From: Candidatus Dojkabacteria bacterium
GTDB taxonomy: Bacteria > Patescibacteriota > Dojkabacteria > J137
Assembly (NCBI GenBank): GCA_040006935.1
Contig: JBDTVZ010000001.1
Coordinates: 18,218 to 82,217 of the forward strand
Direction: 5' to 3'
DNA length: 64,000 nt
Shown: piece by piece, positions 12,226 to 55,389 of the stretch
How positions within the stretch are numbered: position 1 is the stretch's first letter
Layout: each line of letters opens with the position of its first letter
The notes under the pieces: model-generated
The model's input: only the letters and a program-made list of their open reading frames with translations
What the model was told of the DNA's origin: nothing
Databases searched by the model: none
Made by a program: the position numbers and the translations under genes

Positions 12226-12582
12226 TTTAAGTCTTTTGATTAGTGTAACTATCATTTTAGATATTTCAATCATATCATTTAAAAGTTCTTCGTATTGTTT
12301 CTCATTGAGGTAGTTTATTTTGAAAGAAATCAATGTTTGTGTTTCCAATTCTGAGAGTGAACCTAATGAAATCCTTAAGAAGTTTATGAAATCTTTAGTA
12401 GTTCTTCTGGATCCTTCCGCAATATTTGAAGGAATCGAAACAGAGGATCTTCTTAATTGGTTTGTAATTCCGTAAACTTCTTTTGCAGGAAAATTTTCTG
12501 TATATTGATAAATTTTTACAGATAAATTAATACTTTTTTTCCAAATAGATAAATCTTTATATGAGGATATTTTGTTTTCCAT
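12223..12582 (-). CDS. four-helix-bundle protein (23S rRNA intervening-sequence protein family)
   Basis: YKDLSIWKKSINLSVKIYQYTENFP..E..GITNQLRRSSVSIPSNIAEGS.R.T.KDFINFL.IS.GSL.ELETQ is the hallmark pattern of this family. ATG at 12582 preferred over GTG at 12591. Confidence 0.85.
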   Translation of the reverse strand: MENKISSYKDLSIWKKSINLSVKIYQYTENFPAKEVYGITNQLRRSSVSIPSNIAEGSRRTTKDFINFLRISLGSLSELETQTLISFKINYLNEKQYEELLNDMIEISKMIVTLIKRLK

Positions 12583-12594
12583 ACTATTCACTAT

Positions 12595-20905: not shown

Positions 20906-23900
20906 ATGAATAGTGCAATTGCAAAAGCTATCGCAGGACAAGACACTCTTGTTACTCCAGCTAGATTTGATAATAATCAGCAAAAAGACAGAATGAGAAA
21001 TAAAAATGGAGCTGATGGTCGTGGTCTTGTACAAAAGTACGGTATTAATCCTACTGATTTAGCAGCGCTTGAAGCCTATGTTGATGGAAACCTACAACAA
21101 GTACAAATTATAGACCAAGACGCAAATACAATGGAAGCTGATAGATTAAATCAGTCCAGTGGTGGTGAGCAATGGCTTAGAAAACATAAAATTACTAAAT
21201 TTATTGGTAAATTTGGTAAATTTATAGCACCACAAATTGCAGGAATGGGCGTAAGAGCAGCTTTTGGAACAGTAGGTGCAACAGGTGGTCCATTAGTTGC
21301 AGGGGCAATTGGAGGACTTACAGGTGGTTTAAAAGCTGCAGTTGATATTACATTGGCAGGAAGGAATAACACAGACATTGTCGAGTTCTTTGGTAAGAAT
21401 GTAAACGTGGCTGGAGTATTTGAGCAACAGAATAGAGATAAATGGAAAGTAGATAAATTGGCAAGAGGCTGGTTTAATTGGGGAAAAAATTGGGCATTAG
21501 AACCAGTTTATAAATATCAAGAGAGAGAAGATAGGATTTTAAATTTCTTAAGCGATAAAAGGCTAGATTTTTCTAGAGAGGGATATTTCAGAGATCCAAT
21601 GACGGTATTCCCTGTAATGAAGAATCTCCCACTTTCAGATATCCAATTATTTTTGAAAGATTTGTATATACAAGGTACTCTCCTTAGTGCTGTAGGGAGC
21701 AGAAAGGATTTAACACCAGAAGTTAGAAGGATAATCCAAAATTGGATAGACTCATTTTGTGAATTACAACTAATGCTAAATGCTATTTTGTTGAATAGAG
21801 GTTTGCCTTTAACACAAATAGAAGGGATTAGGACTGATGCAACGAAAGAAATAACTTCGTTTAGATCTGCCAAAGGAGAGGCTGCATATGCTCTCAGAAG
21901 AGGCACAACTAATGCAATTCAAAGTGCTGTTTATAATGTAGCATTCCAAACCTTAGTAACAGGTGTTCAAAAATTAGTTACACACTATCAAGGTCTAGTT
22001 ACAATTAATAGAGAGTTAGTTCCAATAAATAACAATGTGGATGCAATGAGGGCAGCTAATCCTCGTTTGGATCAAATAGATCAACAGGTACAGAATTTAC
22101 AGACCCAATTACAACAGACAAACGTAGCTGGTGGGGTTACTAATGTAACCAATCAAGTAGTGCAAAATGTGGCAGGGACTGCAAGAGATAGAGCCCTTTC
22201 ACTCTTTGGTGCAGATTACTTAAATAATGCCGGAATGGGAGAAATGGGAAGGTGGGCAAGAGTTGCAGCAATACAAACTTTTCAAAATCAATATACACCT
22301 CAAGTTGAGAATTTGATTGGAACTTTATCAAGAAACACACACTTAAGCAGAGATGATATCTTAGCCTGGATAATGAATAGAGGGTCTATTGATGGAGCTT
22401 ATCAAGTAGTTGGCGGAGCTTCTATAGTAAATTTAAACGTAACTGATTTACTAACAAGAGCCATAAATGGTCAGTATAATGTTGCATCAATTATTCAAGG
22501 TGCAAATGCAAATGTAGATGCTAGGTGGTTAGATTTAATGAAAAATGGAATGGGACAAATAATTAATCAAGTAACTACTACTAATGTTGCAGGTGCTGGA
22601 TTAACAGATGCTGCACGAGCAAATATTTTTGAGCAAATTGCGAGATTATTAGCTGAGAAAGCTTTAATTGGAGAGAATATTGGGGGAGCTGAATTGCAAA
22701 GAGCAGTAGCTGCTATGGATCCTAACATTTTAAGACAGATATCAGAAGGAAGTGTAAATGTTTTGGATTACTTAATCGATACTGGGTTAATTGTTGCTGG
22801 CGGTGCAATTGGGTTTATAGGTGTTGCAGGTTCTTGGGCAGCAGAAAGTGGGGAATTAGGCACAAGAAGAACTGTTGAAGTTAGAAGAAATATCCCTAAT
22901 CCAAATACTCCTATGCCGCCACCGGTTGGGCCAAATGGTAGACCTTATCCTCAGCCTAACGCGCAACGTGCAGCAGTTTATAATGCAACGCCATATCCAC
23001 AACAAGCTGCGAATCAGCAGCCAGGATTAGCTCCTGTTCCGCAAGGAGGATTAGGTTCAGGTGTTCCAGTTTCAAGCGATGAAACGCTTCATGGTGTCAG
23101 AGCATTGGATGATGCTTCAGCTCAAACAGTCCCATCTGATTTTTTTGCTAACACAAGGCAAAATACCTCCACTCAGCCTATATTAAATAATGCTGTGCCT
23201 CAACAAAATCAACCAGTAGATCAAAATAATCTTGTAGCTAAGATTAATCAAATTATGACTGAGAATTATGACTTGCCTAGAATTATTAATGAGATAATTA
23301 ACAATCCTAGAACAATTACTTTGGACGCTGTTATCCATAACGATAATATATCGAGGCTTTTTGACAAAGCCTTGATCTCGAATTTAGGTATTAAAGAGAA
23401 AGTCTACTATTTAGGAAATGATGGACTAAAAAAAGAAAAAGATATTATGAAATTGATTATTATTAATGACCAATACAATGATATTGTGAAGGATCTAGAC
23501 GCTTGGGGATTAAGTAAAGATCAAATTATCCTTAGACGTATTGTTAATAAACCAGGTGGAGGTGAGGAGGAAGTATTCTACAATATGAAAATAAATAATA
23601 GAAATTATACAATTGAGGAAATAACTGATTCAGGTGTTGAAGTAGGTGGTATTCAATATGGAACACCAAAAGTCACTGACTTAGGCATTGGATTCAATTT
23701 ACTTAGTCAAATAGAAGAAACACAGAAATCTACATCAGTAGGAGAAAATCAAGTAGAAAATAAGGACGAAGATATTATTGCGAGATTTAATATTCCTGAT
23801 TATCCTACTGGAGCTTCTCAGGGTTATCCCGAATCTATAGCAGGAAAAGAAGCAATTATTAATAAAAATTATAAAGAGGAGTATAAATTGCAGCCATATG

Positions 23901-26900
23901 ATGGAGAAGTAGAAAAATATCCACTATTTGATAATGATTACAATGAATTTGACGGAATAATGTTACATAGATTTGAAATTGAAGGTCAAAAATTTGATTT
24001 ATTTATAACTAAAGAAGGTGCAATTTGGTATTTCGATAAAGATAATAATTTTATGAGATTAGAAAATCCTGCAAATGTAGGAGGAACTATTACTTTAGAT
24101 AACGGTGAAGCTTATGAAATAAAATTAGATGCAAATCATAATGTAAGAGTTAAGAAGAACGAAGTTGTTGCAGCACCAGATGTAATTGGTGAGAAGATAA
24201 TTGTAGATGGAGATGAAGTTATCATTAACTCATCAGAAAATTTAAGATTACTTGGCTCTGGAAATAGCTCTATCCCACTTGAATCTTTTGCGATTAAAGA
24301 TGGTAAAGGGAAAATAGAAGAAGACTCAAGGCTATTAGTAATTAATAACCAGAAGTATGTGTTCAGAGATGGGAAAATATATGAAATTAATGGAACAGAG
24401 GTAGTAGAAGATCAAGATGGAACTATCACTATTGAATCATCAAAAGAGCGAGATGTGAAAGTAAAATTATCTAACGGTAAAATAGAAGTATATGAAATTA
24501 TAAAGGGTGATCTTAAATTACCAAAATTGGAAAGAAGAGAATTCCAAGCTAACAGTGTCGAAACGAAGAAACTAAGTTCAGAAGAAAGATTGCAATCACT
24601 AAATGATCAATTAAAAGATAAAAAAATCACTATAGAAAACAAAAATGAGAGTGCAATTACTATTAGTGATTTAGAATTAACACCAGATGAAAAGGCTTTA
24701 CTCCAAGGAAGATTATCTTTGTGGTACGACAGAATTCAAGAAATCAACCCTTTAATCTTAACTGGTCCGTATGATAAAACTTTCAATTTTCAAGAGTATG
24801 GTAATGGTGAAAGTATAGCTGCTGCAATTGTAGAATCTGGTTTTGAAGGAAATAATAATAGTTTAAATCTAGTTGATTTTATAAATAACCCTGACAAATT
24901 GGATATAGCTGATGTAGAAAGAGCTTTGATTAACAAATTTGGATGGAAAGAGGAAAAACAAGCAGAAAATAGAGTGGAAATTATGCTTTATGTTTACCAT
25001 TTAGTTCATGCTGTGGAAGGTGCATTAGGTGGATATTTCGGAGTATATAATCAATTAGAGGCTCTTGATGGTAAAGATATAAAAATTGATATTCAAAATG
25101 ATTCTGGGGCAAATGCTATTCGTTTTGTAGGTAAAGATAATATTAAAGAATTAACACCAGAGAACAAGGCCTTCATTGGCGGTAGAATTACTAAATTATT
25201 TGATATTTCTAGGAAGTTGAATCCTGATATTAGCCCTGAAGACCATCAAACACTTCACTATGACTTTTCAAATGATGGTAATAGGATGCTTAATGCTATT
25301 AGAAAAATTGTTTCTAAAGAGAACGCGGGACCAATATCCTTGTTTAATCTATTAAATGAGATCGAGATTATTGATTTCGGAGAATTATTCCCAACGTTGT
25401 TTATGGAGGGTTGGAAAGACGACAACATGAATGATAATAGAGCAGCAGTTGGTTTAATGCTTTGGCATTTAGCAAATGCAATTGAGGGACAGCTAAGTGA
25501 TAATGAAGTAAAGGGCGAAGACAAAATTTTGGATGTTGACACTGAAATAAAAAAAGACAAGGAATTTGTTGTCAGATTAATCTCTAGCATAAAAGATGTC
25601 ACACCTAAATCTACCTCTGAAGAACGGCTATTCCCGATGGTATTTGAAGCGATTGGCTATAATACTGGAAATAGAGATAACCCAGATTTGCTTGTAACAG
25701 CAATTATTATGGATTCTATTGAGCATTATGCACTTCCAGGATTAGTAAATAGAATAATAGACTTAATGGATATTGATGATGTCGATAGAGAATCCGTGCG
25801 ATTAGGAATTTATACATTTATAGAGGAAAAATTATTAACTAACGATATTGCTGTAGTTCATAAGGACGATGCAAAGACTGCTTTAATTGGACTTGAATCC
25901 AGGAAAACTCTAGAGACACTAGATATTGCTTTAAGTGTCGAAGAAATAAGTAAATTAAATAAAGAAAGTAATGAAGATGAACAAACTAATAATTTAGAAG
26001 TTAACAAGTTCCCGGAGAGTATGGAACTAAACAAGGCATATGAAACTTTAATTCAATGGGATAGAAATCCTTTAAAAGTTGAAATCCCAGTAACTAATGA
26101 GCAAGGGGTAAGTTTTCAGATAAGTTTTAACCATAAAGAATTAGTACCAGCACTTAATGCAGAAGGTCGAATAATGCATAGGGAATTTAACGTTAAGAAC
26201 TCCCAAAATGTTAAGGATTATCCTACTGAGTCTGGGGAATACACGTTGATTTATTCTTTTAGTAAGGTTAAAACATCGGGAGAGGGGATTGAAAGTTTAT
26301 TAATAGAGTATAAAGTTTTAAAGAAAGAAACTCCCGATTCTAAAAATATAGATAAAGTTAAGCTACTAAGAACGATTGAAGAAAAAGAGAAAAACTTAGG
26401 AGAATTACAAGAACAATTACAATCTAATCTAATAAGTAGAGAACTTTATAATGTCAAGAGGAGAGATTTAATGTTTAAAGTAGGAAATGATTGGTTATTA
26501 GTGGGGTTAAAACGATGGCATCTTCATCATCCTGAAAAAGCAGGTACCAAGGACGAATGGGAAATAATTAACCCATACCAAAGGTATCAATTAGAGAGGC
26601 CTATTATTAAAACTAAAGATATTAATGAACCAGACTTTCTTGCCAGCCTAAGTGAGGGTAATGATCAGGTAATCAGAAATCTAGATGCTGAGAAAATAAT
26701 TGGAGAACTTAAGCCAGGAAGACAGTTTGAATCGGATGATAATATCTTTACAGTTATAGAGATTACCCCAAACGGAGTATTTAGAACAAAAAGGCAATCA
26801 AGGAAAGGGGGAATAGAAGTATCTCTAAATTTTGCAAGAGAAAATCTATTGGAATATTTTACAGAAGGAAGGTTGAGAACTATTGAAAATATTAATGTAA

Positions 26901-27463
26901 ACGAAAATAAAAAGAAAGTAGATGAAATTGTTATCTCATTAGAAAAAAATAAAGAACTAATTGAAAGATTAACTATCAATGACAGATTCAGAAGAAAAAC
27001 CACAAATACTACTTACACAATCGAAGATAATGATGGTGATAGTTTGGTAGTAATAGAAAGCACTGCTCGAACAGAAACTCCTATGTTTTTAAGAAAAAGC
27101 ATTTTGCTTGAATGGTTGCTTAACGATGATGTGGAGATGTTAGAGCCAGAAGATAATTCTGAATATGAAAAAACTGTTGAAAACTTAAAGAAAGGGGATG
27201 AATTTACCTACAACGGAAACAAGTACGTGGTTTTACCTAGTATCTCAGGTTATCGTGGGATAGTTGGCGGTAACATAGATAAGCGAAGCGATGTGAAGAG
27301 ATTTCCATCTGGGACCTTTATGAGATTTTTAAAGGAAGGAGTAGTTAAGATTGAAAGTACGAATGAAGAGATAACGCAACAAGTTGCAAAAGGAGTAAAG
27401 GAAGCTCAGAGAAGTCCAACAGCTATTCTAAAGGAAATAGCAGATACTTATGAAGATTTATAA
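20906..27463 (+). CDS. giant protein 1 (2185 aa), unknown family
   Basis: Uninterrupted 6.5-kb ORF. Gly-rich hydrophobic segments at 21221..21362 and 22772..22853, a Pro/Gln-rich linker at ~22885..23230, then a K/E/I/N-rich body with internal duplications (24780-25030 vs 25255-25500) and three C-terminal ~60-aa repeats (26702..27357). Confidence 0.8.
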   Translation: MNSAIAKAIAGQDTLVTPARFDNNQQKDRMRNKNGADGRGLVQKYGINPTDLAALEAYVDGNLQQVQIIDQDANTMEADRLNQSSGGEQWLRKHKITKFIGKFGKFIAPQIAGMGVRAAFGTVGATGGPLVAGAIGGLTGGLKAAVDITLAGRNNTDIVEFFGKNVNVAGVFEQQNRDKWKVDKLARGWFNWGKNWALEPVYKYQEREDRILNFLSDKRLDFSREGYFRDPMTVFPVMKNLPLSDIQLFLKDLYIQGTLLSAVGSRKDLTPEVRRIIQNWIDSFCELQLMLNAILLNRGLPLTQIEGIRTDATKEITSFRSAKGEAAYALRRGTTNAIQSAVYNVAFQTLVTGVQKLVTHYQGLVTINRELVPINNNVDAMRAANPRLDQIDQQVQNLQTQLQQTNVAGGVTNVTNQVVQNVAGTARDRALSLFGADYLNNAGMGEMGRWARVAAIQTFQNQYTPQVENLIGTLSRNTHLSRDDILAWIMNRGSIDGAYQVVGGASIVNLNVTDLLTRAINGQYNVASIIQGANANVDARWLDLMKNGMGQIINQVTTTNVAGAGLTDAARANIFEQIARLLAEKALIGENIGGAELQRAVAAMDPNILRQISEGSVNVLDYLIDTGLIVAGGAIGFIGVAGSWAAESGELGTRRTVEVRRNIPNPNTPMPPPVGPNGRPYPQPNAQRAAVYNATPYPQQAANQQPGLAPVPQGGLGSGVPVSSDETLHGVRALDDASAQTVPSDFFANTRQNTSTQPILNNAVPQQNQPVDQNNLVAKINQIMTENYDLPRIINEIINNPRTITLDAVIHNDNISRLFDKALISNLGIKEKVYYLGNDGLKKEKDIMKLIIINDQYNDIVKDLDAWGLSKDQIILRRIVNKPGGGEEEVFYNMKINNRNYTIEEITDSGVEVGGIQYGTPKVTDLGIGFNLLSQIEETQKSTSVGENQVENKDEDIIARFNIPDYPTGASQGYPESIAGKEAIINKNYKEEYKLQPYDGEVEKYPLFDNDYNEFDGIMLHRFEIEGQKFDLFITKEGAIWYFDKDNNFMRLENPANVGGTITLDNGEAYEIKLDANHNVRVKKNEVVAAPDVIGEKIIVDGDEVIINSSENLRLLGSGNSSIPLESFAIKDGKGKIEEDSRLLVINNQKYVFRDGKIYEINGTEVVEDQDGTITIESSKERDVKVKLSNGKIEVYEIIKGDLKLPKLERREFQANSVETKKLSSEERLQSLNDQLKDKKITIENKNESAITISDLELTPDEKALLQGRLSLWYDRIQEINPLILTGPYDKTFNFQEYGNGESIAAAIVESGFEGNNNSLNLVDFINNPDKLDIADVERALINKFGWKEEKQAENRVEIMLYVYHLVHAVEGALGGYFGVYNQLEALDGKDIKIDIQNDSGANAIRFVGKDNIKELTPENKAFIGGRITKLFDISRKLNPDISPEDHQTLHYDFSNDGNRMLNAIRKIVSKENAGPISLFNLLNEIEIIDFGELFPTLFMEGWKDDNMNDNRAAVGLMLWHLANAIEGQLSDNEVKGEDKILDVDTEIKKDKEFVVRLISSIKDVTPKSTSEERLFPMVFEAIGYNTGNRDNPDLLVTAIIMDSIEHYALPGLVNRIIDLMDIDDVDRESVRLGIYTFIEEKLLTNDIAVVHKDDAKTALIGLESRKTLETLDIALSVEEISKLNKESNEDEQTNNLEVNKFPESMELNKAYETLIQWDRNPLKVEIPVTNEQGVSFQISFNHKELVPALNAEGRIMHREFNVKNSQNVKDYPTESGEYTLIYSFSKVKTSGEGIESLLIEYKVLKKETPDSKNIDKVKLLRTIEEKEKNLGELQEQLQSNLISRELYNVKRRDLMFKVGNDWLLVGLKRWHLHHPEKAGTKDEWEIINPYQRYQLERPIIKTKDINEPDFLASLSEGNDQVIRNLDAEKIIGELKPGRQFESDDNIFTVIEITPNGVFRTKRQSRKGGIEVSLNFARENLLEYFTEGRLRTIENINVNENKKKVDEIVISLEKNKELIERLTINDRFRRKTTNTTYTIEDNDGDSLVVIESTARTETPMFLRKSILLEWLLNDDVEMLEPEDNSEYEKTVENLKKGDEFTYNGNKYVVLPSISGYRGIVGGNIDKRSDVKRFPSGTFMRFLKEGVVKIESTNEEITQQVAKGVKEAQRSPTAILKEIADTYEDL

Positions 27464-27465
27464 CT

Positions 27466-28485
27466 ATGGATCAACCACCTCAAGATTTGGTCAAAAAAAA
27501 GGGGAAAGTACTAGCTAGCCTTAACTTGTATCCAGAGCTTCTAAATCATCCTGATATGCAGGAGGATCGGCTAGCTACATTGAACCAAATTGGAGAAACT
27601 CTTTTAGGTTTGTTTCAAAAATTATTTAGTAACCCTGAGTACTACGGCGATGTATTTTTCATTGGTGGAATAGAAAAATGGCTTTCCGATTTAGAGAATA
27701 TTGAGATATTTGAAGCAGTAGTTCAACAACTTCGAACACTGGAGGAGATAGGGTCTGATCAAGCAGAATGGCATATTAGAAACTTTTTAAATAATGTAGC
27801 AAAAAGAGTTAAAAGTAATGGAGGTCAGTTATCACTACAAACAAATGATAAGTTAGGAATTACGGAAGCCGAAGCTGTTTTTAAGCAAATGGATAAAATT
27901 AGTGCAGAAAGAATTCATATCCCTGAGAATTTAAATATTTTATTGGACCAAAGATTTATAATTTCTGCACGCGAACTAGAAATAGATATGCAAAAGGTTT
28001 TAGCGCGTCCAAAAGTTACAGAAGTATCCTTTTTAGATCAGCCTAGAGCAGATTTCCAAAAAGAGATTGAGATGTACGATAATGATAGCGAAATTGATGG
28101 AGTTCTTTTGTTTATTCTTTCCAACTTAACAGGAGATGCTATGCAATATGTTATCAATCAAATGGTAAATAAATTAAAAAGAACTACTCAAACAGTTGTG
28201 GCAGTTCTTGAAAGGTATAGAACTTCGTTTGAAAGCAGAGTTTTGAGAGGAGAACAAATCTCGGTCTATGGATCGCCAATACGAGATTATGAATTAATTA
28301 TAAATGAAATACTTGATCTTATTAAAGAACAAGAGAAAAAGAATGGAGAGTATTTATTCGGTGCAGTAGATCTACTTAGAACCAAATCACCAGACGGGTT
28401 TGTAGGTATAACTAAAATGTCACAAATACTATTAACCACACATAGAGCAAGGTATAAAAGTAAAATTATAGCCTTACTAAAATAA
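27466..28485 (+). CDS. hypothetical protein between the giant genes
   Basis: 339-aa ORF, 2 nt after giant 1 and 20 nt before giant 2. No recognisable motif. Confidence 0.6.
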   Translation: MDQPPQDLVKKKGKVLASLNLYPELLNHPDMQEDRLATLNQIGETLLGLFQKLFSNPEYYGDVFFIGGIEKWLSDLENIEIFEAVVQQLRTLEEIGSDQAEWHIRNFLNNVAKRVKSNGGQLSLQTNDKLGITEAEAVFKQMDKISAERIHIPENLNILLDQRFIISARELEIDMQKVLARPKVTEVSFLDQPRADFQKEIEMYDNDSEIDGVLLFILSNLTGDAMQYVINQMVNKLKRTTQTVVAVLERYRTSFESRVLRGEQISVYGSPIRDYELIINEILDLIKEQEKKNGEYLFGAVDLLRTKSPDGFVGITKMSQILLTTHRARYKSKIIALLK

Positions 28486-28505
28486 ATCTCTTCTATAGTT
28501 CTAAA

Positions 28506-31500
28506 ATGCAGTACGATGAGATTAAACAAACACAAAATAATAATCTTACCGAAATTCAAAGAGAACGTGAATTAAAAGCTGCACAACTTCGAGCACAAAA
28601 TGCTTCTACAATTTTAAACAAAAAAATTAATCGGTCTTCATTTTCTAATTCTGCTAAAGAAGTTAAACCATTTGATTATCTTGAACGGCTAGAATGTTCC
28701 ATGACATTAGATAGAGTTGATTCAGAAAGAAATGGTACTAATATCAATACTCAAATTATAAATTGTGATTACTCTACAGAAATAGATTCTAAAGGTAGAG
28801 AAATAATTAAAATGACAGTGCCCCATCGGCTGGATTTTTTAGCACTAAATTTAAACCCAGGATCAGTTTTTATTTTTGATAGGTCTAACTATAGATTGCT
28901 ATCTATAGAACAAAAAGATCAGCAGAAAGTAGTAAATTCTGTTGAAGTTTGGCCTCATGTTGAAATACTATCTATAGATAAAATACTTTTCACATTCTCA
29001 GATTTACTTAATAAAGAGAAAATCGTAGCCTTTGAAAGTTTAGAAAATAATGTAATGCGTCTCAAAAAAGGTCCTTTTGATGGCTTCCCAAATAAAATTT
29101 ATTTCCAAAAATATAACCTTGAGAACCCAATATTTATTGAAGACTATGATGAAATTAAAAAAGCCTACCATGCTCCTGGGCAAGGGTCTTTTATTGATGT
29201 TGATTATAATATGGCTATTAAAGCGTTTAACCAAGCATCGAACATATTAGAAACCGAAGACAGAACTGCTGATTTTCAATACCCAGAAGTATTAAGATTA
29301 TTTTCTAAATTAAAAATAGCATTTGCTAAAGATTTAATTCCTAATGAAAATCCTCATGACACTGTTTTTGAATTGAGATTAAGAAACGAATTAAATATTG
29401 ATGGTGTACATATTTACGCAGGGGCAGTAATGAAAATTGATGTGAATGATCCAGAATTTTTTACAATAAAGTATCCTCCTCAAAATGGTGTCCAGATTGA
29501 GTTTATAGAAATAAATGGCACAAAATTATATGCACCAGGGGAAATTTTGTGTAGAAATACCTCCGAAGATCTCCAAATAACCTCAATAAATGGTGGCCAA
29601 CTCGAGAATATGGGAAGCGAAAGAGTTATTAAAATTATAAAAGCAAATAATGGATTTATTGGCTTGGTAGCAAATGATGAAGTAATTAAATTCACGAAAG
29701 ATCATAAAGTTTTAACTTTACTAAGTAATGTGGACCCATCAGTACAAATACTAATAAGTGATATTATGAAAAATAGATACTTTTTACATGATATTTACTC
29801 TGATAATTACCTAGAAGGGGCAATTGAACTTGTAAGTAATCACACAGGTTCTCTTGCTACAATAATATTTGAAGATGAACAACCTGGGAATATAATTATT
29901 CCAAACTATCCAAACATTCATCCATCGTTACACGGTCTTGCAATAGGCCAATTTGACAGATTAATTTTAGATAAAAAAGGTGAATTTGCAATCTTTGGCG
30001 TTGCTACTGAAAGATACGATATGCATTTTCGTGGAGTATGGTACGAAAGAATAGAACGAATTTTTATAAATTTTCGAACTGGAGAGGTTAGGTTTAGGTG
30101 TGATAGCTATTTTGAAGGTGGCAAAAGATACGGTCAAACTAAGTACAGTGAGAATACTTATATTATTGTCGATAATTTAGGCCTTAAACAAACAGGAGAT
30201 GGTATATTTTCTGAAGTCGAAAACAATGTGCCAAAGGGAGATGATTATAAGGACCACATTTCAAGGACGCTTAAAATTAAAGAAATAAGAATAGGAGATA
30301 TGAGACAGTTAAATGAAGATAGGATTGATATAACTGCATCATTTGACTCAATAGTATTAAATAACCAAGAAAACCCCACATTACATAACTGGATATACGC
30401 ACAGGCTCCATTTGGAAGTATTGTTAACTTTAATAGTAAAAATTCTATAATTGAAAGCATTGAAGTACCCTACGATACCTATATAAAATCTGGTGGGATA
30501 CGCGCATCACTAGGATCTAGCTTTAAAATAAGTGGTATAAGAAAAGTTTTATTTGAGGAAGATTCTCAGAATTTTCCATTAGATGTAAAGGAATTAAAAG
30601 GTGAAATTACTATTACATTAAATAATAAAATTTATAGGGCAAAAGATATTAGTGTTAATAGTTTAGGTTTAAAATTGGACAAATTCCCTTTAATTACTTG
30701 GGAGGTTATTTACAATGGTGCTACAGAATTACCTGATGAGTTATTAGTGGAAAATAATAGTGTAAATATACCAACAAAGAACGAAATTCTTTATCTTGCA
30801 AATCGATTAACTGTGCAGGTTAATAATAGGAAACCTGAAGATGACTTTGATCTAGAACAAAATGTAAATAGTTTAATCGGGCTAACAAGATGGCTATATG
30901 AATCTGCAAATAAATTAGGTGGCCCATTCAATCTAGCGGAATGGGTTACAATCTATAAACCATTACTTTATTATTACTATAACGACCCTGAGGCAGTAAT
31001 ATTGCTAATAATGGGCTTTATACCTAATTCAAACGGTAATATAGATCCAATAGATTACATGTTTCTTTATGCAACATACCTTGAGATTTTTAAACAAAGA
31101 TATCCGGAGGTAGAAAGTGAATTAATTTTACTATTGAGTAGTTTAAACCCCGATCTTAAATTTATATATAAGAATGAAATTAAAGATATTATAAGTAATT
31201 TTGAAATACTCGAAGATGAGAATAAGCAACATTTCCTAGACGAGTTAGATAGCATAAATATGGATACGCCTAGTCATATCCCAGTCCCAGTAAGTCACTC
31301 TCAAGTAGAAGGCTTCAAAGCAGACCAATTCTCAATAGAAAAAGGTTTTCTCAAATTTAATGAAGAACCTAAAGCAATCGATCTTTTACAAAGAATAGGT
31401 AACCTTCGAGAACTTTCAACTAGCTCTGAGCTTGACAAGCAAATAGAAATAATTAAAGAAAACGGTTCGAGAATTGATATGAATGTTGTTGGTCAGATTT

Positions 31501-33941
31501 CTCAAATCCTTGAAACAATAATAGGCTTTAAGATCGAAGGTTTAGATCTAGCTAAGAACTTTGTTGTATTTGGAATGATAATAAACTTTGCAAATAACTT
31601 ACGCGAATTAAAGAACAAAAGGTCTAAAGACTCTCAAGAAGAAATAAATATTGCTATAACTGAACTGCAGAATAAAATAAATAGAATTAAATCTGGCGAA
31701 TTAACAGAAGAAGAAATGCAATTTGAAATGTCTAATGAAAATGTATTGAAGATTTTAATGCACATGACCTCCGGAACTTTACCCAAAGAATATCTAGTAT
31801 TTACAATATTGATGTTGATTACTTCTGGTGTTGAAATTGCTGGAGTTAGAAACGTTTTAAAACTTGATCAAATTATAAAAAACCAAAGAGGAGATGATAT
31901 TGGAGTTCCGTATTTAAAGTATAGAGAGGAAATACTTGAAGTAAAAGCCACAGGAAATGTGATGGCACTACAAGAAGTTATTATAAAAAACGTAAGCATG
32001 TTAATCAACTACATGAGAAATTTTCATAATTACGAGGATTACTCCGAAGATTTTTTAGTAATGTGTAAATTATTGAACCTTAAAGAAGGTGAGTTCTCTA
32101 CCAACTGTTTTGGTATAGGGCTAATTTATCAAGCCATACTTGACTTAATGATTGGTGATATTTGTGAGATTAATTATGCAACTCTCCATCACGAATTAGG
32201 TAATGATATTGAAGACTGGTTTAAAAATCTGGGTGAAATAGTTATGGCGGGTCATGCTGTATTCATTATTAAACTTCCACTTATAGATGGAGAGGAAAAT
32301 AAATATATCATTGGAGATCCACTAAGTGTGATTAACAGCTTAGCTCAAAAAAATAAAAGAAAACCTTTAGACAAACATCATAATTGCATGGTTGTAAAGG
32401 AGTCCGAACTTATGCTAGACAATGAGATTAATTCTGTTCTTGAAAATACAAAATTCGTTACTATAGATCCTAATAAAAAAATCCGAATAGTTCAGAAAGA
32501 TAATAAAGAAATACAAATGAAGATAGATCCTAATGATGTTTATCAAGTATATAAAGACAGGAATTCTATTTTAACCTATGCAATGATTAGTTCCTTCAGA
32601 GATTTAAATGGCTACTTAACAACCATAGCGCCAGATGAAGGTGAAGTATTAATGGATATGATTACAGATTCAAAATATAAAGGAGATAGAAACAAAGCAT
32701 TTGAGAAGTATATGCTTTTATATAATAGATATTCAGGATTTGAATATAGATCTACAAACTCTAATCAAGTAATAGCATCGAATATAATATTATTAAATTT
32801 TGCTCTTGAAAATGATTATTATATTGAAGCTTTGTTCCTGGCCAATGTAAATAAAATAAAATTAGCCAAACTATATCCAGACAAAGACGACTACGATGAA
32901 TCTTTAATTTTCGATACGCAAAAAGCATTTATACTTACAAAAATAGCCAATCTCGATGAGACAGAAATCCTAAAATTAATTGAAGATAAAAAATATCTTT
33001 TAAGAAAAGAAGATATTACACTTATCTGGGAAAATGTCTCCTTTATAAATTTAACATTGCGTTTATTTAATGAAACAAAAGAGGATCAAAAAAGAACTCT
33101 AAAATTACTATCTTCTGAGTCACTTTACTATTTGATTTTTGATCCACTAAGATACAATAATATCCAGGAAATGAAAGACTTATGTAAAGAGATATTAAAA
33201 GTTGCTTTGGAAAATGATTATTTACCATATTCAGCTTATATTATAGAAAAACTAGTTAAGTTAAGTCCCGAAGACGAAACTCTGAAATTAGTAGAAGATA
33301 AGATTATAAAATTCATTGCTAAAACCGATAACTATATAATACTTACACAACTAAATCCACATTTAATTTTCTCAAAATTTATAGACAAAATTCATAAAGT
33401 TTTAGAAGTTAGTTTTGAGATACCAACTATCCAATCAATTTTAAACATATTGAATGGAGTGAAGGATGATAAAGTTATTGATGATCAATACGAAAGTCTT
33501 CACAAAGTATTAAGTAGTAATCACACTGCACTTGATAGAGCTGCTTATCGACATAAAGTTGAAGAAGAAAAAAGAATAGTTGCAGCTGTAGAGGCAAACA
33601 CTCATAGAATTGAGGAGATAAATAATCAAGTAAAAACTGAAGTGAGGTCAGGAGGGCAATCCTACCAATCCCTGCATCAAGAAGAAAAACCCCTTGAACT
33701 TGGAGACAACTATATAAAAATAACTGAAGAGGCTGTTTTCGGATCGATTGATCTACTCGTGAGTAAATATGGTGAACTCTCAGGAGACATAATGGCTCTA
33801 TTTCTTCGAGGAGCTGATGAAACAGTAATTCGTCTAGCAGAGAATAATTTGAGGAAGAAAGGAATATTACTTCCATCACCCGAAAATGCAGCTAAAAGGT
33901 TACAAGGACAAAATCTCCCATTGTTACAATCGAATTCTTAA
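28506..33941 (+). CDS. giant protein 2 (1811 aa), unknown family, no obvious TM or signal peptide
   Basis: Uninterrupted 5.4-kb ORF. Candidate papain-like Cys..His..Asp arrangement at ~32100..32335. C-terminal helical repeats (ALENDYYIEALF / ALENDYLPYSAYI). Confidence 0.8.
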   Translation: MQYDEIKQTQNNNLTEIQRERELKAAQLRAQNASTILNKKINRSSFSNSAKEVKPFDYLERLECSMTLDRVDSERNGTNINTQIINCDYSTEIDSKGREIIKMTVPHRLDFLALNLNPGSVFIFDRSNYRLLSIEQKDQQKVVNSVEVWPHVEILSIDKILFTFSDLLNKEKIVAFESLENNVMRLKKGPFDGFPNKIYFQKYNLENPIFIEDYDEIKKAYHAPGQGSFIDVDYNMAIKAFNQASNILETEDRTADFQYPEVLRLFSKLKIAFAKDLIPNENPHDTVFELRLRNELNIDGVHIYAGAVMKIDVNDPEFFTIKYPPQNGVQIEFIEINGTKLYAPGEILCRNTSEDLQITSINGGQLENMGSERVIKIIKANNGFIGLVANDEVIKFTKDHKVLTLLSNVDPSVQILISDIMKNRYFLHDIYSDNYLEGAIELVSNHTGSLATIIFEDEQPGNIIIPNYPNIHPSLHGLAIGQFDRLILDKKGEFAIFGVATERYDMHFRGVWYERIERIFINFRTGEVRFRCDSYFEGGKRYGQTKYSENTYIIVDNLGLKQTGDGIFSEVENNVPKGDDYKDHISRTLKIKEIRIGDMRQLNEDRIDITASFDSIVLNNQENPTLHNWIYAQAPFGSIVNFNSKNSIIESIEVPYDTYIKSGGIRASLGSSFKISGIRKVLFEEDSQNFPLDVKELKGEITITLNNKIYRAKDISVNSLGLKLDKFPLITWEVIYNGATELPDELLVENNSVNIPTKNEILYLANRLTVQVNNRKPEDDFDLEQNVNSLIGLTRWLYESANKLGGPFNLAEWVTIYKPLLYYYYNDPEAVILLIMGFIPNSNGNIDPIDYMFLYATYLEIFKQRYPEVESELILLLSSLNPDLKFIYKNEIKDIISNFEILEDENKQHFLDELDSINMDTPSHIPVPVSHSQVEGFKADQFSIEKGFLKFNEEPKAIDLLQRIGNLRELSTSSELDKQIEIIKENGSRIDMNVVGQISQILETIIGFKIEGLDLAKNFVVFGMIINFANNLRELKNKRSKDSQEEINIAITELQNKINRIKSGELTEEEMQFEMSNENVLKILMHMTSGTLPKEYLVFTILMLITSGVEIAGVRNVLKLDQIIKNQRGDDIGVPYLKYREEILEVKATGNVMALQEVIIKNVSMLINYMRNFHNYEDYSEDFLVMCKLLNLKEGEFSTNCFGIGLIYQAILDLMIGDICEINYATLHHELGNDIEDWFKNLGEIVMAGHAVFIIKLPLIDGEENKYIIGDPLSVINSLAQKNKRKPLDKHHNCMVVKESELMLDNEINSVLENTKFVTIDPNKKIRIVQKDNKEIQMKIDPNDVYQVYKDRNSILTYAMISSFRDLNGYLTTIAPDEGEVLMDMITDSKYKGDRNKAFEKYMLLYNRYSGFEYRSTNSNQVIASNIILLNFALENDYYIEALFLANVNKIKLAKLYPDKDDYDESLIFDTQKAFILTKIANLDETEILKLIEDKKYLLRKEDITLIWENVSFINLTLRLFNETKEDQKRTLKLLSSESLYYLIFDPLRYNNIQEMKDLCKEILKVALENDYLPYSAYIIEKLVKLSPEDETLKLVEDKIIKFIAKTDNYIILTQLNPHLIFSKFIDKIHKVLEVSFEIPTIQSILNILNGVKDDKVIDDQYESLHKVLSSNHTALDRAAYRHKVEEEKRIVAAVEANTHRIEEINNQVKTEVRSGGQSYQSLHQEEKPLELGDNYIKITEEAVFGSIDLLVSKYGELSGDIMALFLRGADETVIRLAENNLRKKGILLPSPENAAKRLQGQNLPLLQSNS

Positions 33942-35911
33942 ACTTGCGGTGGAACAGCTGAAACTTCTGTAGTAACAGGTTGTTCAATAGGCTGTGCTTG
34001 AGGAGTTACATTATCTGTTGGTAGAACTGTTCCTGGTTGTTCTAATGGTGGAGCCGAAGAAATATCTAACTGATCTCCTTCTTCATTTTCTACTTTCTGT
34101 TGAAGTAACTCATTAGGGTTTGTAGTTATCAAATTATGCTCATTTTGACTTGCAACAATTTGTATAGCAACATGATTAGCCCCAGCAAAAAATAATCCTT
34201 GTCCAATTCCTGCAGACATTAAAAAAGACTTTTCACCATCTGTAAGATAGAATACTTTCTTTAATTTATCTATCGCAGCTGGTGCTTGCTTCAATAATAT
34301 CTGCATGGATGAGTTATTAATTATTGCTTTACCATAATCTGAAGCTAAGAAGTCATCAACATCTTGTGTAATAGTTGTTAGACCTAATGCATATTTTCTA
34401 GCTCTCTTAGCAATTGAGTATACAAACTTGGCAGCATCTTCGTATTGCATCATAATCCAAGCTTCATCAATTATTAATAATCTTTTCCTCTTATCTCTTT
34501 TAATCTTGGTCCAAATGTAATCAAGCATTACATACATGGCCATTGGTCTTAAATCATCAGCTAAATCACGAATTGAAAATACTGTAAATGTATTGTGAAT
34601 GTTAACCGTGGATTTCCTATCAAACACACCAGATGCGGAACCTTTTAAATATTTTTCTAATCTACGAGCCATTGAATGGGATTCATCTTCCGACATTGCA
34701 TTTAAAATCTTATACAAATCTTCTAACAAAGGAGCTTCGTTTGAATGTGTTGATGGATCGGGTGTGATACCTTTTTCTTTGTACGTTAATATTAAAGCTC
34801 TATCTAAAATTGCTGCTTCCTCTGCAGTTACTGTTCCACCCAACATCATTCTAATTAATCCAGAGAGAGTTAAAATTTTAAATCGGAGTTCATCTTCATC
34901 AGCGTTAAATATCCCAGATAATTCAAAGGGATTCAATTTCTGAGCACCGTCTTGCGAGAATGATATATATTCTCCACCAACTGCATCACATAATCTATCA
35001 AATTCTTTTTCTGGGTCTATAATAATAATGTCAATTCCAAGCATTAAGGACCTCACAGCTTCCAATTTAACTGCATAGGATTTACCAGCTCCGGATGTAG
35101 CCAAAACGACTGAGTTAGCATTAGGAAGTGAAAATCTATCGAAAATAACTAAAGAATTATTATGAAGATTAACCCCATATAAAACTCCTTTATCCATTGT
35201 TAACTCACTACTGACGAATGGGAAAGTTGTAGCAATGGCAGTAGTATCCAAGTTTCTGGTCATATTTATTTTATCAAGACCATATGGAATTGTGCTTTGG
35301 AAACATTCTTCTTGTTGAAGTGTAGCAACTTTAATAATAATTCCAATCGTTGCCATTGTGCTCTCCAGATTCTTTGAAATTTTATCTAACTCTTCCATAG
35401 TATCTGCATGCAATGTTACGTACAAGGCATATTGGAAGAATTTTTCGTTCCCAGCGGCAAGCTGTTCTTGCAAAGTTAATGCATCTTTAAGTTGTACTGC
35501 AACAATAGGATCTCCTTGTCTACCTGCTTCAATTTCAATATTTATTGTTGCCTGAAACTCTGCAATTTTTCTTTTTAAGATTTTTAATATTTCACCAGTT
35601 TCAAAAGGATAATAATAAGTGCTGATGTCTACGGGATATTCAAAGTTAATTAATGGTTCTAACCAACTAGGAGAAACAACACTAGGAAAGCCGATAGCAA
35701 AATATGATCTAAAATACTTATTCCCTATTATTAAATTACTGAAGTTAACCTCAATGGCACTTGGTGCAATAATGTCTTTAACATCAATTAATCCTTGAGC
35801 AAATTTCTGAATAGATTGGTTCTCTCGAGCCAAAGCAGCAGCTTCTTGAGGGTTTATAGGTTTTGTACCTTTTTTAGGTTTTGCGTCTGGTATTAATCCG
35901 AATAAAGCCAT
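33938..35911 (-). CDS. virB4: VirB4/TrbE-class type IV secretion ATPase (C-terminal ~3/4 of a typical VirB4)
   Basis: YFRSYFAIGFPSVVSPSWLEPL, Walker A VVLATSGAGKSYAVK, IIIDPEKEF, NPFEL, Walker B RLLIIDEAWIMM, RKYALGLTTITQDVDDF, NSSMQILLKQ. Pro/Gln-rich C-terminal tail. Confidence 0.85.
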   Translation of the reverse strand: MALFGLIPDAKPKKGTKPINPQEAAALARENQSIQKFAQGLIDVKDIIAPSAIEVNFSNLIIGNKYFRSYFAIGFPSVVSPSWLEPLINFEYPVDISTYYYPFETGEILKILKRKIAEFQATINIEIEAGRQGDPIVAVQLKDALTLQEQLAAGNEKFFQYALYVTLHADTMEELDKISKNLESTMATIGIIIKVATLQQEECFQSTIPYGLDKINMTRNLDTTAIATTFPFVSSELTMDKGVLYGVNLHNNSLVIFDRFSLPNANSVVLATSGAGKSYAVKLEAVRSLMLGIDIIIIDPEKEFDRLCDAVGGEYISFSQDGAQKLNPFELSGIFNADEDELRFKILTLSGLIRMMLGGTVTAEEAAILDRALILTYKEKGITPDPSTHSNEAPLLEDLYKILNAMSEDESHSMARRLEKYLKGSASGVFDRKSTVNIHNTFTVFSIRDLADDLRPMAMYVMLDYIWTKIKRDKRKRLLIIDEAWIMMQYEDAAKFVYSIAKRARKYALGLTTITQDVDDFLASDYGKAIINNSSMQILLKQAPAAIDKLKKVFYLTDGEKSFLMSAGIGQGLFFAGANHVAIQIVASQNEHNLITTNPNELLQQKVENEEGDQLDISSAPPLEQPGTVLPTDNVTPQAQPIEQPVTTEVSAVPPQV

Positions 35912-54241: not shown

Positions 54242-54592
54242 TTAGTAAGTTAACATTTTATTAATCAATCCAGACAGCATCTTCCCTATTATAACTAATG
54301 AACTATAAATATTGCTATACTCGATTTCGTTTATTTTATCTTCGATCTTTAGAAGCTTTATTATTGCTACACATTCCTGCGTGGAACCACGAGCTATTAT
54401 ATAAAAGTTCTTCTTATCTTTACTACTATATTTACCAGCTCCCTCTGCAATATTTAACAAAATACTTGAAGACGCACGATATAACTGGTCTCTTAGGCTA
54501 TTATGTATCAATCTATTTTTTAGAAAAGGTTGTAGAGAAGTTATTAAGTCTTCAGTTTTCAAATACACAGGAAATTTTTCGAAATCAAACAT
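54242..54592 (-). CDS. four-helix-bundle protein (23S rRNA intervening-sequence protein family)
   Basis: MFDFEKFPVYLKTEDL...LRDQLYRASSSILLNIAEGAGKYSSKDKKNFYIIARGSTQECVAIIKL. Confidence 0.85.
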   Translation of the reverse strand: MFDFEKFPVYLKTEDLITSLQPFLKNRLIHNSLRDQLYRASSSILLNIAEGAGKYSSKDKKNFYIIARGSTQECVAIIKLLKIEDKINEIEYSNIYSSLVIIGKMLSGLINKMLTY

Positions 54593-54725
54593 TACTATTA
54601 TGGTAAATGTTTGATTATAGCAAAAAGAGAAATCTTGAAAAAGAAATTCCTAAATTCTTAATCTTTGCCTTTATCTTAATTCTTAGAATTTAGATAAAGA
54701 ATTGAGTATTAGAATTAAGAAGAAT

Positions 54726-54969
54726 AGCAGGTAGGGGGAATCGAACCCCCCTCATCAGTTTGCCTGCCCGCCTAAGGTAAAGTCAGGTTGCAATAAAGAA
54801 TGTGAATACAGCGGGTAGAGGGAATCGAACCCTCCTCTTCAGTTTGGAAAACTGACATAATAACCGATATACTATACCCGCTGTATTCACACTAATTATT
54901 TTTAATACCAGTTAAGTTTACTATGGCAGGCGGGGGAAACTGGCATAATAACCGATATACTATACCTGC
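54726..54969 (-). tRNA. tRNA-Gly(CCC) gene interrupted in the anticodon loop by a 172-nt insert (exon 1 54934..54969, exon 2 54726..54761)
   Basis: Joined halves give a 71-nt cloverleaf plus U73: GCAGGTA TA GTAT ATCGGTTA TTAT G CCAGT TTCCC|AA ACTGA TGAG GGGGG TTCGATT CCCCC TACCTGC T. All stems pair except C27.A43. Confidence 0.7.
54810..54881 (-). tRNA. tRNA-Gly(UCC), located inside the interruption of tRNA-Gly(CCC)
   Basis: GCGGGTA TA GTAT ATCGGTTA TTAT G TCAGT TTTCCAA ACTGA AGAG GAGGG TTCGATT CCCTC TACCCGC T. Clean cloverleaf with a 7-bp acceptor stem, U8, A14, GG in the D loop, U33 and a TTCGATT T loop; the D stem has a G10.U25 wobble and a U13/U22 mismatch. No encoded CCA. Confidence 0.95.
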
Positions 54970-54984
54970 ATTAATTACTCCACA

Positions 54985-55012
54985 ATTATAGCAAGTAACT
55001 CAAAATTTTCAA
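54985..55012 (-). promoter_or_regulatory. promoter of the tRNA transcription unit (TTGAAA-16-TATAAT)
   Basis: On the minus strand, TTGAAA (55012-55007), a 16-nt spacer, and TATAAT (54990-54985), 15 nt upstream of the outer tRNA 5' end. Confidence 0.65.
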
Positions 55013-55149
55013 GAATAACAATAATGGCTATGCTACTCATAAACCGACATTTTGAAAAGGCCGTGCCACCTCCTATTCAGTTTTCCGTCAAACTTTAGCG
55101 ACACATCGAATTATCGTTACCAGGTAAGCACTTAGATGTATTCTGATGA

Positions 55150-55178
55150 TTGACAAAAGTATATTTCTGTTATATAAT
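55150..55178 (+). promoter_or_regulatory. perfect consensus sigma70 promoter (TTGACA-17-TATAAT)
   Basis: TTGACA 55150-55155, exactly 17 nt of spacer, and TATAAT 55173-55178. Divergent from the tRNA promoter, ~530 nt upstream of the next ORF. Confidence 0.7.
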
Positions 55179-55276
55179 TAAATAGTTAAAAATCAATTAC
55201 AGATCGCGTGTTTACAAGACGGGATGGTCAAGGGAAAGTACGTGAGTCCCAAAACAACCACAAAACTCCCCAACCC

Positions 55277-55389
55277 TAGTTAATAGTTAAAAATTAATAG
55301 TTAAAAGAAGGAAATATCTTCTTGTTCAATTTCAATAAATGGTTATTAATAGTGCACTTAACTCTTCACTATTAAATCTTAACTATTTA
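55277..55389. repeat. 'TAATAGTTAA'-type inverted repeat pair forming a large hairpin with no ORF in the loop
   Basis: The left arm TAGTTAATAGTTAAAAATTAATAGTTAAAAG (55277-55307) pairs imperfectly with the right arm CTTAACTCTTCACTATTAAATCTTAACTATTTA (55357-55389). Confidence 0.5.

Follow-up and report, generated by a model that had tools for sequence, protein, structure and literature searches.

The locus described here raises the question of why a bacterium should carry a complete tRNA-Gly(UCC) gene within the anticodon loop of a second tRNA-Gly gene, and which of the two tRNAs is made. The arrangement (hereafter the nest) occupies positions 54726..55012 on the minus strand of a 64-kb stretch of DNA (the window, that is, the whole stretch that was analysed) from a metagenome-assembled genome (MAG) of Candidatus Dojkabacteria, a lineage of the candidate phyla radiation (CPR). 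To our knowledge, bacterial tRNA genes are interrupted only by group I introns and, rarely, by group II introns. tRNA genes that are split, permuted or interrupted by several introns are considered peculiarities of archaea or algae. The explanation favoured here, to which a probability of about 0.55 is given, is that tRNA-carrying hairpin cassettes have split the resident gene and that only the inner tRNA is functional.

The nested anatomy had been proposed in an earlier note made from the sequence alone; every one of its elements was found in place, and fold prediction, spliced alignment and ARAGORN (run on the joined outer pieces) agree on it. All features of the nest lie on the minus strand. 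The promoter described in that note, TTGAAA-16-TATAAT, is present at 54985..55012 as a sigma-70-type site with a TG-extended -10 element (TTGAAA-16-TGnTATAAT; 11 of 12 consensus positions). A promoter scan of the window locus gave no second minus-strand promoter-like site upstream of either tRNA or inside the 5' linker, and the site at 54985..55012 most likely drives the entire nested unit. It is followed by the 5' piece of the outer tRNA-Gly (54935..54969), which starts with GCAGGTA and comprises the acceptor 5' strand, the same D arm as in the inner tRNA, the anticodon-stem 5' strand and U32 U33 C34 C35. The 3' piece (54726..54762) supplies C36 A37 A38, the 3' strand of the anticodon stem, the variable loop, the T arm, the acceptor 3' strand and U73; it ends in ...TACCTGCT, and CCA is not encoded.

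Between these two pieces lies a hairpin insert of 172 nt (54763..54934), the putative cassette, whose ends and architecture fit the family of CPR nests described below. It is delimited by a 5' GC clamp, CCCGCCTGCC (54925..54934, unique in the 64 kb), and a 3' GC clamp, GGCGGGCAGG (54763..54772, likewise unique in the window), which pair in two alternative registers, CCCGCC/GGCGGG or GCCTGCC/GGCAGGC. At the tip of the hairpin stands the complete inner tRNA-Gly(UCC) (54810..54881), called by ARAGORN and matched by the Rfam tRNA model with 64 bits (E = 1.9e-13), in agreement with the earlier assignment. Its acceptor stem is prolonged by an extension helix with a 5' strand at 54882..54893 and a 3' strand at 54799..54810 that begins at the discriminator U73; this helix, first described as a perfect one of 10 bp, in fact comprises 12 contiguous pairs. 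The inner gene is the sole canonical uninterrupted tRNA gene at the locus, and probably its sole functional product. In the 47-nt 3' linker, the 10-nt sequence GCAACCTGAC (54782..54791; RNA form GCAACCUGAC) is a remnant of the 5' strand of a conserved 3' hairpin, the C hairpin, whose consensus in GC-richer relatives is CGCAACCAGAYGG. Its occurrence by chance in a linker of this length has a probability of about 3e-5; its pairing partner, GTTGC, is absent from the window insert.

Folding of 54720..54975 with RNAfold, a check that the earlier note had proposed, returned a cloverleaf within a cloverleaf at -99.3 kcal/mol (z = -7.9, with 0 of 200 shuffled sequences as good). When the inner tRNA was aligned in spliced mode to its masked flanks, exactly two blocks were obtained, 54969..54935 (query 1-35) and 54762..54726 (query 36-72), with 65 of 72 positions identical and a score of 109 against a background of at most 51; the identity of about 90% reported before is thus borne out, and one stretch of 23 nt is identical between the two copies. 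Once joined, the outer pieces are identified by ARAGORN as a tRNA-Gly(CCC), while an intron-permissive ARAGORN run, suggested earlier as a check, reports the inner gene only. The joined gene has G1:C72, C2:G71, U73, C35 C36 and all invariant bases, and its sole blemish is a C27.A43 mismatch in the anticodon stem, to which the description of it as canonical has to be adjusted. The joined exons would read ...CAGUUUCC|CAAACUGAUG, that is, GCCAGUUUCC|CAAACUGAUGAGGGGGG. The border between exon and insert is ambiguous by one C, as base 54934 could equally serve as C36 of the outer tRNA, and may therefore fall at 35/36 or at 36/37. The split in the anticodon loop stands as first described; its borders, formerly given as 54934 and 54761, are set here at 35/36 (exon 1 54935..54969, insert 54763..54934, exon 2 54726..54762; junction UUCC|CAAACUGA) because relatives favour that position.

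The inner and outer copies differ at seven positions, among which the compensatory pairs 3:70 and 50:64 are indeed found (bases specific to the outer copy: A3, C27, U45, G50, C64, U70). These pairs had been taken as evidence that both genes are maintained, which does not follow: the covariation predates the nesting, since both pair types occur in CPR tRNA-Gly genes that are intact. Two tRNA-Gly types, GCAGGTA/TACCTGC and GCGGGTA/TACCCGC, existed in CPR beforehand, and intact genes elsewhere represent both A3:U70 / G50:C64 and G3:C70 / A50:U64, the A3:U70 pair of the window's outer gene included. Intact tRNA-Gly genes of 7 other CPR genomes have exactly the T arm plus acceptor strand of the outer gene (24 nt).

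Recurrence of the arrangement was examined with two unrelated pattern scans, which together gave 17 further loci (numbered below with an L), 14 of them distinct and most of them GC-richer than the window. The first scan used the outer T arm and acceptor strand on one genome per species and returned seven loci, all in Patescibacteria. Five of these are ordinary tRNA-Gly genes, and the sequence type of the outer gene is on this basis a normal one for CPR tRNA-Gly; the other two are nests, in Ca. Microgenomatus auricola (L003) and in Patescibacteria H32-bin145 (L004), where a complete tRNA-Gly(UCC) is preceded by a tRNA-Gly 5' half and followed by 3' halves. The second scan, carried out on metagenomes, used the 5' border plus the start of the inner tRNA (UUUCYCCCG, 40-70 nt, start of tRNA-Gly), and all 15 loci recovered are true nests. 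The nests range from the 32% GC Dojkabacteria genome to contigs of 50-56% GC. Like the window, they have a hairpin tipped by a complete cognate tRNA inside a loop of an outer tRNA for the same amino acid; the innermost tRNA is clean in every nest, each of which keeps exactly one clean cognate tRNA. The comparison with related genomes advised in the earlier note has thus shown the nested arrangement to recur in CPR loci.

Relatives with an uninterrupted Gly(CCC) gene had also been named in that note as an informative case. The closest retrievable locus to that of the window, within its own lineage, is L193, with an inner tRNA about 87% identical and a neighbouring four-helix-bundle protein 75% identical; the two lineage-specific proteins that flank the nest in the window had no homologues except themselves. 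In L193 a promoter of its own directly precedes an un-nested tRNA-Gly(UCC), which is thus of the inner type, and all that is found of an outer gene is a scrap, an 11-nt copy of the 3' acceptor end alone, downstream behind a CCUGCC...GGCAUGG hairpin.

The borders of the inserts are conserved. In the usual form, exon 1 ...UUUC | UCCCG(C)...(G)CGGGA | CAAGCUGA... exon 2, the GC clamp (Y)CCCGC...GCGGG(R) stands directly at the exon borders and the border is 35/36, as it is in the window (UUCC|CCCGCC...GGCGGGCAGG|CAAA, compared with the common UUUC|UCCCGC...GCGGGA|CAAG). The 5' motif formed part of the search pattern for the innermost layer only, and it was seen at 10 junctions outside this selection (L003, two in L004, and seven outer layers); the 3' border GGGA|CAA, which was in none of the search patterns, occurs at 14 junctions. 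The insert typically holds three hairpins that abut without spacers: an AT-rich hairpin A, a long hairpin B with the inner tRNA at its tip, and the conserved hairpin C (consensus UCCUCGCAACCAGAYGG...CRUCGUUGCGGGA), for which 5 of the 15 predicted pairs show compensatory changes. Each hairpin begins with UCC and ends with GGA, hence the internal palindrome CGGGA|UCCCG. The extension of the inner acceptor stem by hairpin B spans 7-24 positions in 12 of the 16 loci scored in register, and two more loci show it one register off. In control tRNAs it spans 0-5 positions in 16 of 17 cases, and the exception turned out to be a nested tRNA-Pro; among 61 tRNAs in CPR loci, long extensions were otherwise seen only at the tRNA-Pro nest of L187 and the tRNA-Arg nest of L191.

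The window insert is a reduced variant of this plan, with the clamp CCCGCC(UGCC)...GGCGGG(CAGG), no A hairpin and a C hairpin reduced to 10 nt, so that the flanking pair of A and C hairpins is not found there; L180, L185 and L192 likewise lack C. Its ends, CCCGCC...GGCGGG(CAGG), are also present on the tRNA-Pro nest of L187 and on small hairpins at the D arm or position 26 in the outer tRNAs of L004, L178, L182 and L186, and the ...GGGCAGG 3' end recurs on the hairpin inserts of these same four loci. Terminal inverted repeats are present in the window; those of relatives (TCCCGC.../...GCGGGA) reach 13 nt.

Nests reach 3-4 layers. Two or three stacked 5' halves occur in L004, L180, L182, L185, L189 and L191, and each layer is a distinct tRNA-Gly(UCC) with mutually matching halves; in L182, for example, layer 3 pairs ACAGC with GCUGU and layer 2 pairs UCAGC with GCUGA. 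One unit, made up of TCCCGCCGCGACACATTGGTCTTTTCTTGAT and a GCAGGTA-type tRNA after it, can be met at different depths, as the innermost element of L185 and as an interrupted one in L004 and L180. Incomplete outer layers are common. The outer tRNA of L003 has no T arm, the outer 3' half of L181 is deleted, L186 is rearranged, and L004 contains an orphan 3' half plus one layer with a truncated T arm. The 5' halves outnumber the 3' halves in L180 (middle layer without 3' half, outermost without D arm), in L185 and L189 (outermost layers without 3' halves) and in L191 (three 5' halves against one 3' half). Severe defects were counted in 6 of 11 complete outer layers and in 1 of 14 innermost tRNAs (Fisher p = 0.02), the outer-layer defects being U73 changed to A or C (three cases), loss of G18G19, A1.C72 and G7.G66. 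Additional hairpin inserts are confined to the outer layers (9 of 11, against 0 of 16 innermost tRNAs; p = 1e-5). They are GC-rich, 15-120 nt long and precise, without duplication, and sit at D-arm position 9/10, at position 26 or at T-loop position 55/56. Loci with such outer-layer hairpins are L178, L182, L004, L184, L186, L187, L191 and L192, and examples are TCCGGCGGAGCCGGA, CCTGCCTGCCGGCAGGCAGG and TCCCGAC...GTCGGGA.

Some further observations concern the same family of sequences. At 2155-2333 of L179 (minus orientation), a truncated tRNA-Gly, which extends no further than the variable loop and precedes an intact tRNA-Gly(UCC) of identical sequence, contains at position 35/36 a 37-nt insert, TCCCGCCTGTGAAGGACGGGATCCCGCTGTGGCGGGA, that carries no tRNA; the hairpin insert therefore exists without cargo. 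In the window, the sequence AGTTTGACGGAAAACTGAATAGGAGG at about 55060-55100 (minus strand), upstream of the promoter of the nest, resembles tRNA-Gly and matches AAACTGAAGAGGAGG of the inner tRNA at 14 of 15 positions; it may be a further decayed tRNA-Gly remnant. A protein of about 110 aa with a PWHRV/PWQRV motif, alkyltransferase-like as judged from this motif alone, is encoded beside the nests L003, L004, L180, L182, L185, L189 and L192. Its candidacy as a mobility factor was set aside, the association being read as conserved synteny and not as a functional link; as the same gene adjoins them, many nests appear to be orthologous sites with differing layering histories.

In all nests the inner tRNA is of the same isoacceptor as the tRNA that it interrupts, and this holds for Gly, Pro and Arg, among which insertion sites and end motifs differ. 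In L187 (minus orientation, about 60-400) a complete tRNA-Pro(UGG) stands in the anticodon loop of a partial tRNA-Pro, within a hairpin CCCGCCCGCC...GGGCGGG (CCCGCCCGCCTTGACTGC / AGTCAAGGCAGTCGGGCGGG); two UCCCGAC...GUCGGGA hairpins lie upstream and a second tRNA-Pro comes after the nest. In L191 (minus orientation, 1-172) a tRNA-Arg(UCU) flanked by CCCCUUUAUUUA/UAAAUAAAGGGG (CCCCTTTATTTA / TAAATAAAGGGG) stands in the D loop of a cognate tRNA-Arg, of which the part from the D loop to CCA is present and the 5' end is missing, the upstream part falling beyond the end of the locus. This cognate rule fits the outcome expected of selection for rescue of an essential gene, although the copying of a gene into itself would give the same. 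The other Gly nests all read UCC, and the CCC of the window's outer gene may for this reason result from a U34C change in a UCC copy that is no longer functional. The loci L184, L187 and L178 have nearly identical outer exons, borders and B linkers in contigs with unrelated flanks, and their inner tRNAs show a divergence of about 20%, brought about by compensatory changes in the stems, that of L178 being of the outer type.

The favoured explanation would account for these data as follows. A GC-clamped hairpin cassette (CCCGCC...GGCGGG) would split a resident tRNA-Gly gene at anticodon position 35/36 and would bring at its tip a complete replacement tRNA-Gly, which would make the disruption harmless. 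The carried copy would then assume the function, while the split outer gene, now dispensable, would decay and gather further small hairpins; the new inner copy would in turn be open to renewed invasion, giving nests of up to 3-4 layers. The cassettes would be mobile, and the family would have spread through CPR/Patescibacteria by repeatedly entering the loop of the cognate tRNA gene. The nest of the window would be a single transcription unit, read from the promoter that precedes the outer 5' half, with the inner tRNA-Gly(UCC) as its sole mature product, presumably cut out of the long hairpin by RNase P together with a 3' nuclease, and the outer tRNA-Gly(CCC) would not be made. In the earlier note, the disruption of a dispensable Gly gene by a palindromic element with a tRNA on it had been the second of two hypotheses, the first being a new tRNA intron; the 14 distinct related loci now favour the second, because outer layers are often defective and collect hairpins, and because L193 keeps the inner tRNA only.

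Several observations weigh against invasion by cassettes. No transposase, integrase or homing endonuclease was found near any nest; there is no target-site duplication, the joined exons giving an exact 7-nt anticodon loop, and no dispersed copies of the clamp occur within the 64 kb. All 11 complete outer layers give an ARAGORN-detectable tRNA-Gly after precise removal of 1-4 inserts, and four are flawless (perfect stems in L004, L182 layer 2, L184 and L191), which is unexpected of old pseudogenes. The outer gene of the window is intact save for C27.A43, and a comparable A27.A43 occurs in a functional inner tRNA (L187). L184 and L187 combine a near-identical shell and linkers with different inner tRNAs, where simple inward invasion predicts otherwise; this pattern needs invasion followed by deletion, or recombination. 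The conserved borders and the covarying 3' hairpin (5 pairs) would also fit an RNA-processing signal.

This last point leads to the strongest rival, a new kind of bacterial tRNA intron, which is regarded as a possible but distinctly less probable account. Here a hitherto undescribed endonuclease would cut both strands at the base of the clamped helix and a ligase would join the outer halves, so that a single transcript of the window would give both tRNA-Gly(UCC) and tRNA-Gly(CCC), and each multilayer locus several tRNA-Gly; the additional hairpins of the D arm and T loop would count as introns of that class too, comparable to those of the multi-intron tRNAs of Thermoproteales. The broader form of this idea, a protein-dependent CPR splicing system that excises GC-clamped hairpin introns from anticodon, D and T loops, some of them carrying whole tRNAs, is held to be doubtful. 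Precise and conserved borders speak for splicing (GGGA|CAA at the 14 junctions mentioned), as do the restoration of tRNA-Gly in silico from every complete outer layer, the restriction of inserts to the single-stranded tRNA positions 9/10, 26, 35/36 and 55/56, the covariation in the hairpin that adjoins the 3' border and, in the window, an outer anticodon (CCC) that differs from the inner one. They are set against the many outer layers that lack halves or arms and are unable to give a tRNA, the enrichment of U73 loss, G18G19 loss and acceptor mismatches in those that are complete, and the retention of one clean cognate copy in every nest. Hairpin inserts occur in no innermost tRNA, nor in the other tRNAs among the 61 examined, and the two cuts would have to face each other across the end of a helix, which no known splicing endonuclease substrate shows. 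The window offers no candidate enzyme: its 56 open reading frames (ORFs) contain no RtcB, EndA, RNA ligase, transposase, integrase or recombinase domain. RNase P and RNase Z, named in the earlier intron hypothesis, were rejected on theoretical grounds as the only splicing enzymes, because the inner cuts would leave the linkers attached to the outer halves, so that these enzymes alone would give no ligatable outer ends; with the clamp hairpin taken as an RNase P/Z minihelix, the cuts would fall one base off the exon borders.

An origin in situ, in which repair or replication errors at a hairpin site duplicate the tRNA into itself and gene conversion homogenises the copies, would also leave the outer halves non-functional, and would make the cognate rule a consequence of the mechanism and not of selection. 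The near identity of some copies (72/72 in L186, 68/72 in L178, identical in L179, 65/72 with an identical D arm in the window) is in its favour, together with the validity of the cognate rule in three tRNA species with differing insertion sites and the lack of any mobility gene found near a nest. It is judged unlikely, as the inner and outer tRNA-Gly types differ in L184, L187, L180 and L185, the same linker-plus-tRNA unit is found at different loci and depths, and end motifs and hairpins are shared by the 32% GC Dojkabacteria and the 50-56% GC contigs. More improbable again is that the outer halves and linkers are kept as a scaffold, a leader-trailer stem for processing or stability of the inner tRNA similar to the RNase III processing stems around rRNAs, with the outer tRNA never completed. 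The outer 5' half does lie in the leader, downstream of the promoter, and the extension helix is found in nearly all nests with unrelated sequences; L193 and ordinary CPR tRNA genes nevertheless do without such a scaffold, the outer parts decay freely, and neither the split of a cognate tRNA nor the multiple layers are explained. As for a chimeric assembly of two tRNA-Gly genes, it might be suspected from the MAG source, which has no close database relative, and from the 23-nt stretch shared by the outer and inner copies. A chimera formed through a shared repeat would, however, give a tandem or truncated gene, and not complementary linkers, a 12-bp helix and matching clamps. The same architecture is present in 17 other loci of independent assemblies; L182, L183 and L188 are identical over 785 nt in three assemblies, and L186 and L190 are likewise identical, so that an artefact becomes highly improbable.

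The invasion by tRNA-carrying cassettes, and its intron rival, were further compared with known systems. Bacterial group I introns interrupt anticodon loops, as in the cyanobacterial tRNA-Leu(UAA) and tRNA-fMet, and have been surveyed in Patescibacteria tRNA genes (PMC13011429); that survey covers group I introns only, and Gly and nesting are unmentioned in it. Like the nest, group I introns interrupt a bacterial tRNA gene in the anticodon loop, occur in CPR and cause the gene to be missed by standard tRNA finders. The nest differs by the lack of a recognisable catalytic core (P3-P9), by an insert of 172 nt, of which 72 are a cognate tRNA, and by a 5' exon that ends in C, under either border, instead of U; the last base of the insert is G only if the border is 35/36, and the remaining ~100 nt of non-tRNA sequence are too short for a group I core. 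Rfam searches at the gathering threshold, and at E <= 5 on 54400..55300, gave the inner tRNA only, as they did for L003 and L004, and the earlier exclusion of a group I intron is upheld; any other known ribozyme or RNA family was rejected on the same result.

A functional RNA inside a tRNA intron has a parallel in the archaeal pre-tRNA-Trp, whose intron carries a C/D box RNA. More generally, the archaeal bulge-helix-bulge introns (reviewed in PMC4090602) are, like the inserts of the nests, short and structured and located in the D arm, anticodon loop and T loop, and those of Thermoproteales, where introns transpose, show related sequences at different sites, as do the nests. The bulge-helix-bulge geometry itself had been denied for the window, and rightly so, as sequence and fold offer no pair of 3-nt bulges around a 4-bp helix, only an asymmetric internal loop followed by the clamp helix; both borders are at the same helix end, and no pairing is possible between CCCC at the start of the insert and GCAA at the start of exon 2. 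Nests differ from these introns also by a border at 35/36 in place of 37/38, a bacterial host, a whole tRNA as cargo and outer genes that often decay, and EndA was not seen within the 64 kb of the window. In the split and permuted tRNA genes of Nanoarchaeum equitans, Caldivirga and Cyanidioschyzon merolae (PMC4390854, PMC4033280), halves are parted near the anticodon loop and held together by complementary sequences, as in the nest. The halves of the nest are, in contrast, co-linear, in normal order, 172 nt apart in one transcript from one promoter, and enclose a complete cognate tRNA, so that a split or permuted gene was rejected.

Integrative elements that target tRNA genes (att sites of phages, integrative and conjugative elements and genomic islands; see PMC9897764 on tRNA fragments) also disrupt a gene, supply a replacement and leave fragments. 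Such elements are kilobases long, encode an integrase, and duplicate the 3' part only, with a distal direct repeat, whereas the insert of the nest has a 5' half on one side and a 3' half on the other; with no integrase or recombinase domain in the window, an att site was rejected as well. A phage origin was rejected after blastn against phage records, which found ordinary tRNA-Gly genes only. The nest patterns gave 0 hits in the viral contigs of IMG/VR, and two shorter patterns matched in viral sequences only normal phage tRNA-Gly genes or chance occurrences. Small palindromic elements comprise the Rickettsia palindromic elements, the mitochondrial GC clusters, miniature inverted-repeat transposable elements (MITEs) and the intervening sequences of 23S rRNA that are excised by RNase III. 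With nests they have in common GC-rich non-coding hairpins, tolerated in loops and sporadic among relatives; we know of none that carries a tRNA gene, targets a cognate tRNA gene or builds multilayer nests. The insert is not a typical MITE: it has the terminal inverted repeats, and neither a target-site duplication nor dispersed copies were found in the 64 kb. Full-text searches of the literature turned up no bacterial tRNA gene described as lying inside another tRNA gene, and either reading, cassettes or splicing, would be new.

The surroundings of the nest are those of an ordinary CPR chromosome of about 32% GC, with genes for CTP synthase, MiaA, TGT, PheRS, EF-P, glycosyltransferases and a sortase. 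Two 23S_rRNA_IVP / four-helix-bundle genes are present (54242-54592 and 12223-12591, both on the minus strand), the first directly downstream of the nest with its own promoter (54641..54614). Homologues of this IVP gene lie downstream of tRNA-Gly in L193 and of tRNA-Arg(CCU) in L194, behind a similar AT-rich, hairpin-rich leader. A link between nest and IVP gene was discarded, as four other homologues (L195-L198) have no tRNA nearby and no IVP gene is found near other nests. A perfect sigma-70 consensus (TTGACA-17-TATAAT) at 55150-55178 on the plus strand precedes the next long ORF (55707) by about 530 nt, a distance that implies either a lengthy leader or a small RNA or gene absent from the annotation. 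Elsewhere in the window, two giant ORFs at 20906-33941 (+) and 33938-35911 (-), of 2185 and 1811 aa, have no Pfam match and lie beside a TraG-like P-loop ATPase, and an N-terminal segment of a PheRS alpha-like protein of 599 aa (14803-16602, minus strand) corresponds to the C-terminal end of the AlaRS core profile (PF01411, tRNA-synt_2c), an unusual fusion.

What the nests present is a whole tRNA gene within the anticodon loop of a gene of its own kind, stacked up to three or four deep in CPR lineages from 32% to 56% GC. They go unnoticed because standard tRNA finders report the innermost gene only, and their outer halves could be mis-scored as tRNA fragments or att sites. If the cassette explanation is true, they would represent tiny non-coding elements of a 'disrupt-and-rescue' kind, which replace the essential gene that they disrupt; if splicing is true, they would reveal a bacterial tRNA splicing pathway with nested tRNA cargo. 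In either case the nests offer a testable system for the study of tRNA halves, of intron gain at the anticodon loop and of CPR RNA biology.

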